A stretch of DNA of 64,000 nucleotides from a virus: positions 13,860-77,859 of IMG/VR virus record IMGVR_UViG_3300037882_004127; one strand, written 5' to 3'. This document shows, piece by piece, positions 45,796 through 61,806 of the stretch. How positions within the stretch are numbered: the first letter of the stretch is position 1; every line of letters starts with the position of its first letter. The notes under the pieces are model-generated. The model was not told the DNA's origin. It did not search any database and saw nothing but the letters and a program-made list of their open reading frames with translations. Both the position numbers and the translations under genes were made by a program.

Positions 45796-46304
45796 TACAA
45801 CTTTTTACAATATTTCCTAAGTTTTGTCAAGCCTGTTTTAGAGCCTAAATTGAACAACGGAATCCCTTTATCTTTACAGACCAAAATTCCGGTGCAAGAT
45901 CCGCCAACCTCTTTGCCCTCGGGCGTCCAACAAACAGCCACGGTGGAAGGAGTTTCGTTATCTGAACCCAAAATTAATGCTACGTTGCGAGCGTGGAAAA
46001 TTCGATGATTCAATTTGAGTTGATCCCAATGACCAACATATTTTGACGCCGCTTCCCAATTTTCGGGTGTATGTAAAATTCCATTGTAATGATTATTGTA
46101 GCCTTGCCACGGTAGATAAAGCTCAACTTTGGAATTGGCGACTTTTTTGAACCCGTTGAGCCCAGCGTCATCTATTCCAATGGCTCCTCCAGTGCGTAAA
46201 ACCCATCCTTTCTTGGCGAAAAATTCAGCGATTTGGCCAATTTTGAGTAAGTCATCACCTGAAAATCCTTCGCGCGAACCGAAAATTGAAATATATTTAG
46301 GCAT
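45795..46304 (-). CDS. SLOG/DprA-like nucleotide-binding protein
   Basis: GSR, LRTGGAIGID, LYLPW, ARN...ILG, CWT..G...GGS, IPLFNL. Confidence 0.75.
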   Translation of the reverse strand: MPKYISIFGSREGFSGDDLLKIGQIAEFFAKKGWVLRTGGAIGIDDAGLNGFKKVANSKVELYLPWQGYNNHYNGILHTPENWEAASKYVGHWDQLKLNHRIFHARNVALILGSDNETPSTVAVCWTPEGKEVGGSCTGILVCKDKGIPLFNLGSKTGLTKLRKYCKKL

Positions 46305-46322
46305 TGTTAACTTTATAATGAA

Positions 46323-46350
46323 ATTATAAGGGTTTCGGAAGATGAGTCAA
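46323..46350 (-). promoter_or_regulatory. sigma70-type promoter
   Basis: TTGACT-N16-TATAAT upstream of ATG 46304. Confidence 0.6.
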
Positions 46351-46644
46351 ACTAAATGATTGACCATTTGACCGAAATTCCCAATAATCTCATCAGTGGC
46401 TCTAAACCGATTTTCAATTCCTAAAAGGTTAACCCCCTCCCAAATCAAAAGTATTTGTGAAAAGTTTAACCTAACTGATACCCAGTTCAGAGAGGGGACG
46501 GTTGGCCGCAAGGTAAATTTTCAATTATGCGCCTACATTTGTATCCTCTTAGGCTATAAAGATTGGTATCCAAAATATTGGCCCAAAAGAATGAATAATT
46601 GAAAATAATTTGATTTCCCGCATAAAATTAGTGTATACTTATTT

Positions 46645-47160
46645 AAGGTCTAATAAAAGCGCGAACAAACGCTACAATTACGCCAAGCTATCGCACAGGT
46701 CCTACCACGACGCAATTCGTGCCTGTGAATAGACCACTTTTTATTCAGACATTATGAATAAATGGGCCGCGAGAGTGACGCGGGATAAAAAATCGTTGAG
46801 GTAATACCTTAACACACCAGTTAAATACCAAGCTAACCGCGTTTCTTCCTAACAAGGATAGAATAGAACGAGATTGTATCAAATTTGAATGGGGCTAATT
46901 ACTGGAGCCTGTCTCGCAAGACTTAAAAGTAGTTCGATGGCGAAATTAAGTTGCGCTTCACGTTTGGGCAAATGCCGGTTAATCCCGGTAATCCCCGGTT
47001 TTCGTAAGAAGATTTCCGATAATAGAGCGTGTTTGGGTTAGCCGACCCAATGTTGTCACTTTGTCTTTTGGCTATACCGAACTGAGTTCCCAAAAACATC
47101 AAGCCTATTTACGGATTTTCCGTTTCTAGGCAGTGTTGTGTCTATGCGTAATAAATTACG
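46645..47160 (+). ncRNA. candidate large structured noncoding RNA (family unknown)
   Basis: No ORF >=60 aa from 46603 to 47137; preceded by GTGTAT (46631); many nested hairpins. Confidence 0.45.
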
Positions 47161-48388
47161 TCAAGCTACCCGAAATAAGCCCCGGCCCCTAAAGTGGCCA
47201 AGCTTAAATACTTATGAAAAACCTCCGATCATTTCCGTAGGAAATAAAGGCGAAGCCTTTTCTCTGATTAACGGGGAAAATAAAAAACACCCAGAATTCA
47301 ATCTAAGTGTTTACCTAACCAAGGAATTAAGAGCTATATGATCTAGCACAATAAATTATACGCCCCAACCTTATATCCATAGCCCCATGCCAAACTAGCC
47401 GGAATTAAAAACACAACAGACAACCAATCCCGAGTATCATTTCTATGCGCGCACAATCCCGCCGCAAAGGCCAGCCAAACACACATAATCAGAGCTAGAC
47501 TTTCTACGAATAAGCGAAAAGTAGATTTAATCATTTATGCTCGTTAGTTTCCAAAATTTCGCCGCAATAAGCTCTTCCTGTTCTTCCTCGCTTAGCTCCC
47601 CGTTTCCCGCTCGTGCGGCATATGACCAAGCATCCGCATTCTCAATCAACTTCCTTAACCCATCGTTATTCCCGCACACACAGAATAAGTTAATCTTATG
47701 GAGAAAGTCCTCGTAAACCTTAATTTTCTCCTGATCTGTTGGGATTTTAATCATTTTCGGCCACCTTTCTCATCAACTCGTTAAATTCTTCTCCATATCC
47801 GTTGATAATATATTTTGGGTTAGATGTTGGGTCTCGCCCTTCGTGAATGCAAGTAAAATCCTCAATAATATCATTTAATGGGACATCAAAATCAATTTGC
47901 GCGATTAGTTTACCATCTTTCTTGATCTCATGCCAGTATTCACCTTTTTTATATCGGCAATCCCATCCAACCTTATAACCCAACGATTCAAAATATCTAA
48001 TAACTTCTTGGTTTTGATGTGTCATATTAAGCATCCCTAAGTTTCATTAACCGCGACCGTTCCTCAAGCAACTCGTTCAATCGTTTATACCATTTCGTTT
48101 TATCCTCGTTTGATCGGGCATCCATCCAACACCCGCGCGCCATGGATAAAGTCTTGTCAAGTTCTTCAATTAATTTAACGTAATCTTTGTTCATGCAATT
48201 TTTAATGTTACTTTATCCACAATAGGAATCTGTAGCCCAATACTCGCGGCGTCAAGTGATTTTCCGACACCAATTTTCTCCCAACCAGTTTCAACGTGAC
48301 TTAATCGTTTGAAAATAACCTTTTTCCCGGAACCAAAAGATAACAATCCGCGCCGTTCTTCCAAACTTACAAAAATCCAAATAATTAC

Positions 48389-49624
48389 TCATTTTGACTT
48401 TTTGTTGGACTTCTGCTTCATCAAGGAACTAATCGGATTCGCAAGCGAATCTAATGAACTTCCCTCTCCACAGACTTTAATTCCCGCAGAACTTGCGGTA
48501 TTTTTGTTATGCATATCGTTTAGATAATAGTTTTTCAGGTTAATAGCGACGTTGAGATCGCGGTCGGTAGTTGTATTATCGTCATGTATAGTCGTTCTGT
48601 CCGCCAAAGTCAAGGAATTATTTATTTTTCCTGATTTGTGGTCCAGTTTTGAACTGGGATAGAAGCGATTCGCGATAATCACTGTCCGACCATACCATTT
48701 TGCCTTATATTCAATCATTCGACGAAACGCATAAAATGACGCATCGCCAATAGACTGAGCTAATTTATGATTTTTCATCATATTAGAAACAGATAAATCC
48801 TCTAAAACAATAACTTGGTTATCGTTTACTATTTTAGTGGTTGCTTTGTGTATGGCGTCTTTTCTAATATTTGAAATTCTATAATGTAATTTTGCTAATT
48901 TTTTCTTTGCTTTCTCTCTGTTTTTAGAACCTTTCTTCTTTTTGGATAATTGTCTTTGTTTGCGTTTTAGTTTCTTTAAGTTCTTTTTTAATGCCTTGGG
49001 ATTTTCAAAAATTGTTCCGTCTGAGCAGGTGGCCAGAACCTTAATTCCCAAATCTATACCGACCGCTTCATTTGCGGGTGTGGGTGCGACCTTTACCACA
49101 TCTTCAATCAGGCACGAGACAAACCACTTTCCCGCCCTACTACTAACTGTTACCGATTTAATCTCAGCATCTAGCGGAATATAATCTGATTCTTTCAATT
49201 TTACTTCGCCAATTCTAGGCAATTTAATATGGTTTCTATCTGAGATGTAAATTGAACCATCTAATTTGAATGATTGTTTTTCGTTTTTCTTAGATTTGAA
49301 CTTCGGAAAACCCTTTTTACCTTTAACTTTTTTCTTGCAACGGGCGAAAAAGTTCTTAAATGCAATATCACAATTTATCAGGGCTGATTGCGGAGCAGAT
49401 TTACTTGAATTATACATCCAACCAAGTTCGGATTGCTTTAACTTATTCAACTCTCTATGTAACTCTATTGCATTTGGGATTTTCTCTTTTTTCTCAAACG
49501 CCTCCTTCTTCTTCGCTAACGCCCAATTATAAGCAAATCTCGCACAACCAGCATGTTGCGATAATAAAGTTCGTTGCTTATTATTAACGTCTAATTCTAT
49601 TTTATAAGCACGAAGAAAGTTCAT
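48389..49624 (-). CDS. tnpB: IS607-type TnpB
   Basis: RAYKIEL...HAGCARFAYNWAL, GFPKFKSK, GIDLG, VLEDL, DRDLN. Confidence 0.92.
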   Translation of the reverse strand: MNFLRAYKIELDVNNKQRTLLSQHAGCARFAYNWALAKKKEAFEKKEKIPNAIELHRELNKLKQSELGWMYNSSKSAPQSALINCDIAFKNFFARCKKKVKGKKGFPKFKSKKNEKQSFKLDGSIYISDRNHIKLPRIGEVKLKESDYIPLDAEIKSVTVSSRAGKWFVSCLIEDVVKVAPTPANEAVGIDLGIKVLATCSDGTIFENPKALKKNLKKLKRKQRQLSKKKKGSKNREKAKKKLAKLHYRISNIRKDAIHKATTKIVNDNQVIVLEDLSVSNMMKNHKLAQSIGDASFYAFRRMIEYKAKWYGRTVIIANRFYPSSKLDHKSGKINNSLTLADRTTIHDDNTTTDRDLNVAINLKNYYLNDMHNKNTASSAGIKVCGEGSSLDSLANPISSLMKQKSNKKSK

Positions 49625-58278: not shown

Positions 58279-61200
58279 TCACCCACACTGACTCGATCCG
58301 CAATCACCGCATTTTTTGCAACTTTCAGAGCGAATTATATTATGGCTTCCACAATTTGAGCAGGTTTCCCCGTGGACAATAGTCCCGTCCTTAATGCATT
58401 TTTTTAATGCTCGGCTAAGAGAACGCGCGAAACACGTCATTTCTCCCTCTGTCTTTTCCAATTGATGAACAATGAACGAAATATCCGCCCCGTGTCGCAA
58501 CGAAGTCGAAATCATGCGTGTCAAGGCATCCGCGCTAGAATCTGAGTGGCCATTAGTCAAATCGAATTTTTCTTCGTCACTAACCAAAGAATAATTACCA
58601 CGGGAGTTTTTCACAATCTTTCCGGAAGTTACAGATTTTGGAATAAAAATAATTCCATCTTTTTCATTTGTCCCCGTGAATACCTCATAAGGCTCTCCGT
58701 CCATTAACCCAACAATTCCATAATATTTAACCCCTTTTGAAGTTAGATGTTCAACCGTGCAATCTAGTTCCTTGGGTCGTTTTGGCGCAGTGGTCTTTTT
58801 AATAGCTGACTTAACCTCCTTTGGCTCTTCTTTGGAAGATAAAACCGCCGTCATTGTGCCCGCGCGATAAGTGGTAATCCCCTTAATTGTCCCCGTTTTG
58901 TAAGCATCTAAATATACGTTAGAGAACTTTTCAAATGGATAATCATTAGGAATATTGATAGTTTTACTACAGCTCGCATCTAACCAACGAGTAAACCCTT
59001 TTAAATCGGTAATATGATCCTCAACGGAAATATCTACAGTTGTTTTGGCCCATTCGGCAGAAGGATTCCATTCGCCTCGATTTTCAAGCTCTCTTACTGC
59101 ATAATCTTGGCATAAGACCTCTTTGGTTAAACCGCGACCCTTATCAATTTTATAAGTCACCCCATCCTTCACCGCTCTAAGAATCGTTTCGTCACCCTCT
59201 TTTGCAAATTTAAAAATACCAAATTCAATAAATTCGCCCTCCCAATATTTTGGACAAACAGAAAGTAAATCTTTTGGACACTCAGGAATAATCACGGTCC
59301 GGATATACTCATGCATGAAAATGGGCTCACACCCACCACTTACGACATTGGCCAAAATTGAAGTATTCCCTGTTGGCTGAATAGAAAATAACGATGAATT
59401 ACGAATGCCGTTTTTGCGAATTTTATTCTTTAGTTCATTTGGAATACCGATTGAATTAAAATAATTTACATTAGCCTGCTTCTCGGGTTCACATCCAACG
59501 AACATCCCCTTTTCCGCCGCTAAATTAGCTGATTCATCAATAATGCTAAAACACATTTTTGACATAATCTTTTCTTTTAGCTGCTCAGCCTCATTAGAAG
59601 CAAACTTGACCTTGAGCATATAAAGAAGAGACCCCCAGCCCATAATGCCAACACCTACGCGACGCAATTCCTTAATCGTTTTAATATACTCTGGTAATGG
59701 GGCATAAGTAAGATCGTTGATATTATCAGAGAAACGAAGAGCAATTCGGGAAAACTTCTCCAACTTATCAAAATCAAACCGATTATCAGCGCCAATAAAT
59801 TGCGTTAAATTGATGGAGATTAGATTGCAAGACGAAAAGGGCGGCATTGTCTGCTCGGAACAATTAGAAACATTACATCCGCCCGTCCAATAAGTGTGAC
59901 TTTCATTATCTACGGTAATATGAAAAACCTCCTCTTCGGAAATTAATTCTATTGATTTTATATCTCTATTTTTTATTCTTTTATTGGTGGAGAATTGCTT
60001 ATTTAAAATAAGTGAGTGAAGTTTTTCGTTTTTATAAGACTGTATAAAGCCAATTATTTTGAAAAACTTATCCTTATCAGCACAAATATTTAAATCATAA
60101 GACTGTTTGCATGTATAATCCCCATTGGAAAATTTAATAGTTGAGGGTTTATTCGTGGTATAATATGAATTTATACCTAAATAAGATAGCATCAATTGAA
60201 CCTGCTCTATAACAGCAAACGAAGTTTGTTTTAATGATACTCTATCTCCACAAATCCCACCATTAGCAGTAAATAAGCCGCGCAAAAATCCACATACCTT
60301 ATTTCTGTTTCCGTTAAAAAACCTACTTGGAATTACGCGATTATATGTTTTGGGCAATTCTTCGGCTGTTATAGTTGTCTTTATTTCATATGCGGTGTCC
60401 GACATTGCACGCCGATCTTTCCCTATTAGACTAGAGATTTCGGAGTTAAAATAATCTTGATCTTTTTCGCCGATACATAAAAATACAAGGTTGTTCGATG
60501 CTTTATGCACAGATCCATCGCCTAAAACAAGACCATCCATAACATCTTGTGGGTCTATATTGATAGACGACAGGAATTCACAGGAGAACGTGTCTACGGA
60601 TTCACATTCCTTGGCCTCTTTCTTTGTTCCGTTTTCAACCAAACGGTGGTCGTCCGTGCCAAGAAAAAACCCAGACGTTGTCTTGTATTTATAGACCTCG
60701 CGCATTCCGTTTGACCATTTTTTTGAAACTTTTGTCCATCCATCTGCCGACCAGATCAAATCTCCTTCATTAATATCTCCAAATGTTTTAATTCCACCGG
60801 GGGTCAAAACCGTGGCAGATTTAGGCTGGCACGCATTTGTTTCTTGTATTTCAAGACTTCCGTAATTAAATAGATACTTCTCGTTGGCCCGGTCTAAGAA
60901 TAAGACACCCGGCTCAGCCCGATTGTATGTAGATTCCGTGATAAGGTTCCAAATATCAATGATTGGGGCCGACTTAAAAACGACCGTTTTATACCCCTTC
61001 TTCTCCCATTTTTCAATATTCCCATCCCATTCGGATTTATATTTTTCGTGCTCGGTGTCCGGGTATCGGAAATCCCACATGATTTTGCGTGCTTCGTCAA
61101 TTCCATGTTTGGATTTGATCTCTTCCGCCTTTGAGACCTTATCCATAAAGGAATTAGAACAGTTAATCGACATATTAAATTTCGACAATCTACCCGGAGT

Positions 61201-61806
61201 TTGTTTGGCCGTTATAAACTCTTCGGCATCAGGATGTTCGATATTCAAGATGGCCATTTGCGCCCCTTTACGAATCTTATTCTTCTTTTTATTCGTTTTG
61301 ACGAAATTAATCCCACTCCCGGCTGTGATGATTTCTGAAGATTTATCAAAAATCTCCATATACTTTACCGCGCCCGGAGACTCTACGCCGATTCCCTTGA
61401 TTAAGGAGCCCCTTGGTCGAATAAAGGAGAAATTTAAGCCCCATCCGCCCTCTGACTTAAGGGTGAGGGATTGTTCTAACAAGACCTGTAAAATGCCAGA
61501 AAGAGAATCACAATCGTAAGATGGGCGACCACCGGTATAACAATTGATTAGGGTTGTGCCCTTATGTGAGGTCCCCGCGTTTGCGTAAATTCTTCCGCCG
61601 CATGTGACAGTAAAATCACAAAGCATTTCATAAAACTTGTGATACCATTCTTCCTTTAGTTCGTCCGTTTTCTCCACGGAAGCCGCAGACTTCGCGACCC
61701 GTTTAAATGTGCAATCAATGGATTCATCTAGATAGTCCTTATAGGTTGATTTCCATACTTCTTCGGAAAATTCATCTTTAAAAATCTCAGCGTTAGTCTT
61801 ACTCAT
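58279..61806 (-). CDS. nrdJ: class II (B12-dependent) ribonucleotide reductase with intein
   Basis: GGRI..NAG, NC, GG.G.NFS.IRP, RKGAQM, FNMS, EPG..F.D, CNL, R.G.G.MG, QPTG, SKTIN, YR.G; C-terminal Zn ribbon; no ATP cone. Confidence 0.9.
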   Translation of the reverse strand: MSKTNAEIFKDEFSEEVWKSTYKDYLDESIDCTFKRVAKSAASVEKTDELKEEWYHKFYEMLCDFTVTCGGRIYANAGTSHKGTTLINCYTGGRPSYDCDSLSGILQVLLEQSLTLKSEGGWGLNFSFIRPRGSLIKGIGVESPGAVKYMEIFDKSSEIITAGSGINFVKTNKKKNKIRKGAQMAILNIEHPDAEEFITAKQTPGRLSKFNMSINCSNSFMDKVSKAEEIKSKHGIDEARKIMWDFRYPDTEHEKYKSEWDGNIEKWEKKGYKTVVFKSAPIIDIWNLITESTYNRAEPGVLFLDRANEKYLFNYGSLEIQETNACQPKSATVLTPGGIKTFGDINEGDLIWSADGWTKVSKKWSNGMREVYKYKTTSGFFLGTDDHRLVENGTKKEAKECESVDTFSCEFLSSINIDPQDVMDGLVLGDGSVHKASNNLVFLCIGEKDQDYFNSEISSLIGKDRRAMSDTAYEIKTTITAEELPKTYNRVIPSRFFNGNRNKVCGFLRGLFTANGGICGDRVSLKQTSFAVIEQVQLMLSYLGINSYYTTNKPSTIKFSNGDYTCKQSYDLNICADKDKFFKIIGFIQSYKNEKLHSLILNKQFSTNKRIKNRDIKSIELISEEEVFHITVDNESHTYWTGGCNVSNCSEQTMPPFSSCNLISINLTQFIGADNRFDFDKLEKFSRIALRFSDNINDLTYAPLPEYIKTIKELRRVGVGIMGWGSLLYMLKVKFASNEAEQLKEKIMSKMCFSIIDESANLAAEKGMFVGCEPEKQANVNYFNSIGIPNELKNKIRKNGIRNSSLFSIQPTGNTSILANVVSGGCEPIFMHEYIRTVIIPECPKDLLSVCPKYWEGEFIEFGIFKFAKEGDETILRAVKDGVTYKIDKGRGLTKEVLCQDYAVRELENRGEWNPSAEWAKTTVDISVEDHITDLKGFTRWLDASCSKTINIPNDYPFEKFSNVYLDAYKTGTIKGITTYRAGTMTAVLSSKEEPKEVKSAIKKTTAPKRPKELDCTVEHLTSKGVKYYGIVGLMDGEPYEVFTGTNEKDGIIFIPKSVTSGKIVKNSRGNYSLVSDEEKFDLTNGHSDSSADALTRMISTSLRHGADISFIVHQLEKTEGEMTCFARSLSRALKKCIKDGTIVHGETCSNCGSHNIIRSESCKKCGDCGSSQCG
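59863..60831 (-). mobile_element. LAGLIDADG intein (323 aa) at the RNR active-site cysteine
   Basis: TNA|CQPKSATVL...GGCNVSN|CSEQ; internal GLVLGDGS and FLRGLFTANG; splicing restores NACSE. Confidence 0.9.

Follow-up and report, generated by a model that had tools for sequence, protein, structure and literature searches.

Few large folded RNAs are known from phages, ROOL and GOLLD among them, and what they do is largely not understood. In phages and prophages they often lie beside tRNAs. Here we analysed a hairpin-rich stretch of DNA (positions 46631-47170) that a sequence-only reading had put forward as an unclassified structured RNA of the plus strand, in the size class of ROOL and GOLLD, or else as a replication origin. 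The window, i.e. the whole stretch of DNA that was analysed, comprises 64,000 nucleotides (nt) and corresponds to bases 13860-77859 of the 77,859-bp IMG/VR virus record IMGVR_UViG_3300037882_004127; its source is an uncultivated freshwater giant-phage (jumbo-phage) fragment. The first proposal survived the tests run (no Rfam match, a strand-specific fold, no coding signal), whereas the origin found no support. The extent of the unit had to be revised: the cassette to which the RNA would belong starts left of 46631, with a promoter and a gene for 68 amino acids (aa) at 46360-46602. The reading that we favour, and to which we give slightly less than an even chance, is a moron-like plus-strand cassette made of a promoter, a small protein gene and a long structured noncoding RNA (ncRNA) of no known class. 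Its parts are as follows.

46360-46388, plus strand: sigma70-like promoter P1, TTGACC-17-AATAAT (10/12), with 7 nt between its -10 hexamer and the GTG start of the small gene.
46396-46602, plus strand: small gene of 68 aa with a GTG start; homologue P0038; product predicted to be all-helical and of no known family.
46599-46639, plus strand: two overlapping promoter-like sites, TTGAAA-18-TAAAAT (10/12) and TTGATT-18-TATACT (9/12), by consensus match only.
46630-46958, plus strand: predicted RNA domain I, multi-branched, with a long-range helix closing the fold.
46961-47150, plus strand: predicted RNA domain II, a four-hairpin junction with long irregular stems (47025-47089 and 47095-47137) and one GUAA-loop hairpin.
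47151-47267, plus strand: predicted 3' tail with hairpins, including a weak terminator-like AAAGGC-GAA-GCCUUU-UCUCU at 47247-47267.

The candidate resembles ROOL and GOLLD RNAs in its size class (~0.5-0.8 kb), its phage origin, its multi-domain hairpin-rich fold, a function that is not understood and its character of accessory cargo. It differs from them in failing both covariance models even at E up to 10, in having no tRNA neighbours (ARAGORN, 64-kb window) and in following a small protein gene. An Rfam scan of the whole window and of the first 13.9 kb of the contig gave no gathering-score match, and at E up to 10 the region 46100-47600 yielded eight chance-level matches, none of them to ROOL, GOLLD, OLE, raiA or HEARO. 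The earlier statement that hallmarks of tRNA, tmRNA, RNase P and introns are lacking was borne out, as ARAGORN detected neither tRNA nor tmRNA in the window and no Rfam model matched. A literature search returned nothing specific to such an RNA. By the tests run, the stretch belongs to no known family.

In order to evaluate the fold, the minimum free energy (MFE) was expressed as a z-score against dinucleotide shuffles on both strands (n = 100 shuffles unless stated). The stretch 46631-47170 gave z -2.91 on the plus strand, with 1/100 shuffles as good, and z -0.62 on the minus strand; for 46622-47161 the values were -3.11 (0/100) and -0.95. The structured fold that had been predicted is thus better than chance on the plus strand (z about -3) and null on the minus strand. 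Domain I taken alone scored -2.91 (0/100) on the plus and -0.69 (22/100) on the minus strand. Domain II scored -3.93 (0/200), its MFE structure being equal to the centroid, and -2.69 on the minus strand. Ensemble diversity, i.e. the mean base-pair distance, was 68.6 on the plus strand versus 136 +/- 30 in shuffles (0/40 as low), while on the minus strand it equalled that of the shuffles. Hence both folding energy and ensemble beat dinucleotide shuffles on one strand, as is generally expected of a structured ncRNA. This asymmetry suggests that selection has acted on an RNA, and speaks against duplex palindromes or decayed sequence.

The same scoring was applied to a 540-nt grid, of which 177/288 windows were scanned (61% of the genome). 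Only the candidate stretch and a TnpB/omega-RNA window stood out, the latter more strongly; a third apparent outlier dropped to z -1.9 with 100 shuffles. The positive control (L017:1-540, plus strand) reached z -5.1, the strongest fold signal of the contig. In the second-largest gap (L017:2744-3283; 538 nt, between minus-strand genes) the values were -0.7 and +0.7; neither strand thus showed a fold signal, and Rfam gave no match.

Most of the stems and motifs listed in the sequence-only reading were found where it had placed them, and many recur in the folds. Pair probabilities were 0.95 for CACAGG/CCUGUG, 0.89 for CACGA/UCGUG, 0.97 for GUUGAGGU/ACCUUAAC, 0.89 for UCCU/AGGA, 0.98 for GCCUA/UAGGC and 0.95 for ACGGA/UCCGU; CGUAAU/AUUACG is paired within GCGUAA/UUACGU (0.73). 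In domain II they were 0.9-1.0. The helix supposed to close the first domain (46648-46750) did not hold, being replaced by competing pairings in the minimum-energy folds, and CCGCG/CGCGG and TTGGGT/ACCCAA were displaced in the same way.

No coding signal was detected in the core of the stretch, whether by coding statistics, by its frames or by homology. Its inner open reading frames (ORFs) have negative coding scores under a model trained on the phage's own genes, its period-3 signal is 0.88 versus 1.7-4.0 in genes, and recoding of TGA as W, of TAG as Q or of TAA as Q produced no credible ORF in it. The stop-free frame fragments tested matched no Pfam or PHROG family, and no remnant of any protein of the same genome was detected in the stretch. 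A 99-aa frame at the 3' end, compared with 1.84 billion protein representatives, retrieved only the window's own gene call. The description of the stretch as hairpin-rich and ORF-poor, the longest of its kind in the window, is confirmed: it lies within the largest gap of the 78-kb contig (46305-47342, 1038 nt, by a coding-score gene call), the next largest being 538 nt and the remaining gaps falling in the 35-540 nt range.

The two small plus-strand ORFs said to flank the stretch fared differently, the left one (46396-46602) being a real gene with a homologue, and the right one not coding.

47138-47341, plus strand: ORF of 67 aa, judged not coding; its sole library match is the window's own 65-aa call P0039.

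In a near relative from a freshwater metagenome, the right-hand ORF lacks 1 nt at 47273, and third codon positions are not favoured among its substitutions (3/9). Minus-strand terminators also fall within it.

As judged from its comparison with P0038, which is encoded on a 10,990-nt JGI contig, presumably at its edge, 46396-46602 is a real 68-aa gene. The two products align without gaps and share their C-terminus, with 63/70 residues identical (90%) and 68/70 positives. Upstream of the GTG start, the P0038 sequence cannot be aligned and diverges with indels. A Ser-to-Glu change needs two or three base changes, so the two DNAs are well diverged while the protein is kept. Back-translation of the residues A-N-N upstream in P0038 allows for a kept AATAAT hexamer. 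The 68-aa protein has no match in Pfam, PHROG, NCBIfam, PADLOC or PDB and no relatives in the viral and genome contig collections, and an ESM Atlas search returned only unnamed clusters and a faint HTH_3 lead. A single-sequence AlphaFold2 (AF2) model, of low confidence (predicted local distance difference test, pLDDT, 54), places helices at residues 14-23, 28-32, 38-51 and 57-61. Within the gene, 46426-46472 forms a 20-bp imperfect hairpin (-15.5 kcal/mol, z -2.9 on the minus strand; -8.6 on the plus strand), one pair of which would be broken by an S-to-A change in P0038. This hairpin may be due to chance, or may be a minus-strand signal upstream of the DprA promoter.

The cassette could work as follows. 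The sigma70-type promoter at 46360-46388 would drive both the 68-aa gene and the RNA, using host RNA polymerase. The RNA is modelled as ~550-650 nt long, running from ~46630 to ~47150 with a tail to ~47267, and would consist of two well-defined multi-hairpin domains. It would be either the long 3' part of the small mRNA or the product of the second promoter-like site; by their match to consensus, the sites at 46599-46639 could start a separate RNA near 46635-46646. The right end of the cassette likely lies in the region of 47267. The RNA would act in trans as a stable scaffold or decoy, possibly together with the 68-aa protein. Its transcription, endpoints and role are what we infer from these features.

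The position of the cassette points to accessory cargo. In six relatives found through the DprA-like protein encoded to its left, the DprA-like gene is packed against the upstream genes without any gap; two of these, from a metagenome scan, are distant loci and likewise gap-free. The neighbouring 75-aa protein P0002 led to 45 IMG/VR loci, none of which shows DNA or covariance-model likeness to the gap. Two of them, L019 and L020, have the DprA-like gene as well. The slot between it and P0002 is occupied in L020 (L020:4241-4855) by three small same-strand genes (66, 70 and 74 aa) of no family, and in L019 by an opposite-strand homing endonuclease of 354 aa (L019:4204-5268, minus strand of the locus; DUF7487 / phrog_3339). 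Since its contents differ between L019 and L020, the slot is, on comparison of these loci, hypervariable and open to opposite-strand insertions. In L019, 63 nt from the 3' end of P0002 are present a second time (L019:5190-5252), as if an insertion had duplicated its target.

Near relatives of the stretch comprise three 151-nt Logan contigs from two studies, with 90-98% identity, and one protein (P0038). Parts of it occur in two DNA sequencing runs (freshwater, X1; drinking-water, X2), in small shares and as 151-nt contigs, so that uncovered parts are uninformative. The freshwater run provided contigs 98% identical over 46921-47071 and 90% identical over 47188-47337. The drinking-water contig (X2) matches 47136-47267 at 97% and is then unlike the window. 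The contigs listed as carrying homologues of P0002 or of the DprA-like protein include none of 10,990 nt, the length of the one with P0038. Together with the breakpoint at 47267, this suggests that a cassette from ~46360 to ~47267 moves as a unit. The stretch was not found in the more distant relatives fetched, while near-identical copies exist in other freshwater samples.

These features are those of phage morons: the unit has its own sigma70-like promoter, an orientation independent of and opposite to that of its neighbours, a place in a variable slot, and a presence that varies among relatives, being limited to near-identical strains. It differs from morons in being mostly noncoding and in having a weak or missing terminator. 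The free-standing homing endonuclease cassette of L019 (DUF7487) occupies the same P0002/DprA-like slot in the same opposite-strand orientation; the candidate differs from it in having no nuclease ORF or detectable remnant of one.

Several observations weigh against the proposed cassette RNA. No RNA run is among the sequencing runs listed for the stretch. The 98% identical contig has three substitutions, two of which hit predicted long-range pairs and would disrupt them. A covariance model of the best domain of the RNA found only the stretch itself in 53 fetched loci (45 of them also searched by blastn), and whole records of relatives gave the same outcome, both with DNA (G001-G003) and with the covariance model (G001, G002, G004 and G005). 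At about -3, the z-score stays far from the -5.1 reached by the omega-RNA control. No convincing plus-strand terminator was found in the gap, and four terminator-like hairpins in it are on the minus strand, opposite to the candidate RNA. Taken alone, the terminator-like hairpin at 47247-47267 is no better than shuffles. Searches for four exact or gapped patterns of the stretch in the viral and genome contig collections gave 0 matches. When pseudo-proteins of the gap were used as queries, a single locus (L016) was retrieved, and it shares only a 43-nt terminator hairpin.

A more ambitious form of the favoured reading is that the locus represents a new class of large two-domain phage RNA (~0.55-0.65 kb) in a mobile promoter-protein-RNA cassette, with the 68-aa protein as its dedicated partner. 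We regard this as speculative and rather unlikely. If true, it would amount to an RNA-protein module of which ROOL/GOLLD-type RNAs offer no described example. A class linked to a small protein and driven by sigma70-type promoters could readily be expressed and probed in E. coli, which could reveal its role during infection.

The alternative that survives best, although we consider it unlikely, is a decayed selfish cassette: a promoter and a small DNA-binding protein would once have accompanied a homing nuclease or TnpB, the nuclease gene would since have rotted, and the hairpins would be functionless. Several plus-strand genes of the contig are indeed selfish elements with their own sigma70-like promoters (TnpB, a LAGLIDADG nuclease and a nuclease preceded by a small gene), and the homing endonuclease of L019 shows that the same slot can receive one. 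The frame 46889-47341 is open for 150 codons except for one TAG, which we estimate to be borderline unusual. Its translation is rich in Cys, Arg and Ser and unlike a protein, however, and the tested frame fragments match neither the L019 endonuclease nor, beyond the families and genome proteins mentioned above, anything in the library of 1.84 billion proteins. Nor does the period-3 signal betray a remnant, and the GC content of the stretch (41.7%, above the genome mean) exceeds that of the plus-strand selfish genes (35-37%). In rotting DNA, moreover, neither strand should differ from its shuffles in folding, which is true of the 538-nt gap and not of the stretch. If this explanation were nevertheless correct, the locus would illustrate the turnover of selfish-element slots in jumbo phages.

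Less probable still is an ordinary regulatory spacer, in which terminators, promoter-proximal elements and chance stems would add up to the observed hairpins and no single RNA would exist. The gap is bounded by minus-strand features, with two operon-ending terminators on one side and the promoter of the DprA-like operon on the other.

46323-46350, minus strand: sigma70-like promoter of the DprA-like operon, TTGACT-16-TATAAT (11/12), back to back with the plus-strand cassette promoter.
47312-47285 and 47202-47181, minus strand: two intrinsic terminator-like hairpins with U-tracts, ending the convergent minus-strand operon.
47343-47534, minus strand: convergent gene of 63 aa, right-hand neighbour of the cassette, with two hydrophobic stretches and a positive coding score.

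In favour of a spacer, the two terminators between 47312 and 47181 are good (47275-47320 reaches -12.8 kcal/mol and z -3.6 on the minus strand), two weaker minus-strand hairpins of this kind lie at 46783-46767 and 46673-46658, the promoters at 46323-46388 are divergent, and the strongest local z-scores lie towards the gap ends (46300-46500 on the minus strand, 47000-47300 on both strands). Yet the ~500 nt in the middle of the gap far exceed what terminators and promoters need, considering the size of the other gaps. Domain I is significant on the plus strand and null on the minus strand, and scattered signals would not be expected to yield so well-defined an ensemble on the plus strand.

We consider it very unlikely that the stretch acts at the DNA level, as an origin, a single-strand initiation, packaging or recombination site that would use the hairpins and a repeated AATTACG(C/T)CAAGCTA. 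This 15-nt direct repeat occurs at 46676-46690 and 47154-47168, 478 nt apart and with 14/15 positions matching, so that most of the candidate RNA lies between its copies; CAAGCTA recurs a third time at 46829. The window has 8 copies of CAAGCTA, and the 3 in the stretch are all on the plus strand, an enrichment that is borderline after correction for word choice (about p 0.1, our own estimate). The stretch also adjoins replication/recombination genes (DprA-like and YopX, with the DnaE-type polymerase more distant), and domain II is structured on the minus strand too. On the other hand, the gapped two-copy pattern of the direct repeat has no match in IMG/VR, and tandem repetition is limited to a two-unit CCGGT(T)AATCC, i.e. 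there are only two-copy repeats and no iteron array. No DnaA box is present in the gap, nor between 40907 and 48213, the GC content is not lowered, and the cumulative GC skew is monotonic, without a turn. An essential origin should moreover keep its position, whereas the relatives have no gap there, and the strand asymmetry of the fold favours an RNA over duplex palindromes.

The least credible explanation, a type I-like antitoxin RNA that would overlap the 3' end of the mRNA for the 63-aa protein and control it by 3'-end pairing, fits a neighbouring gene that is convergent, small and endowed with two hydrophobic stretches, and minus-strand terminators (47181-47312) located within or adjoining the plus-strand tail, which would make the transcripts overlap, but the X2 contig keeps 47136-47267 and then diverges, so that the RNA is not always beside this gene, known antitoxin RNAs are several times shorter than the candidate, and protein-family searches with the 63-aa protein matched no toxin family.

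Judged by eye, the product of 47343-47534 is possibly a membrane protein. The protein collection does not contain this 63-aa ORF with that start.

Among known elements, a group I/II intron was rejected, as no intron model matched even with E up to 10. Two further points argue against an intron: set against 30 homologues, the flanking DprA-like protein has its full length, and the right "exon" ORF is not conserved. The omega-RNAs of TnpB elements, IS200/IS605-type guide RNAs that the same genome carries and that Rfam lists as HEARO, are similar to the candidate in being structured RNAs of a mobile cassette, often on the opposite strand. An omega-RNA would overlap the 3' end of a tnpB on its own strand and continue beyond it. 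This class was also rejected: no tnpB lies in the gap or adjoining it, the nearest (48389-49624) being on the other strand and 1.2 kb away, there is no TnpB-like frame, and comparison with three omega-RNA regions of the genome gave only one chance-level 18-nt match, in addition to the lack of a HEARO match. A weak tblastn match between the minus frame 46332-46442 and a TnpB C-terminal fragment (E 0.002, with 302 queries) was attributed to chance, and Pfam sees no OrfB there.

Two other regions of the contig are related to TnpB. The 200-nt region 48500-48699 belongs to the 3' end of the tnpB on the minus strand (48389-49624); it has z -3.9 on the plus and -2.7 on the minus strand and is probably the omega-RNA region of this gene. 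At the start of the contig, outside the window, L017:1-540 comprises the 3' part of a truncated tnpB with the zinc-finger/RuvC motif CPVCQTNHDRDLNAAINI, and a presumed omega-RNA.

At a CheckV completeness of 36%, the record points to a phage genome of some 200 kb, and ~145 of the 157 called genes of the contig are on the minus strand. A blastn search gave no match in GenBank phages, and tblastn matches of DnaE to GenBank phages were all below 30% identity, indicating that no relative has been cultured. Genes of the window code for a DnaE-type polymerase, a LAGLIDADG-interrupted ribonucleotide reductase, YopX, the DprA-like protein and several TnpB and LAGLIDADG genes. In the large subunit of the ribonucleotide reductase (58279-61806), the LAGLIDADG domain lies mid-barrel (residues 504-553), consistent with an intein.

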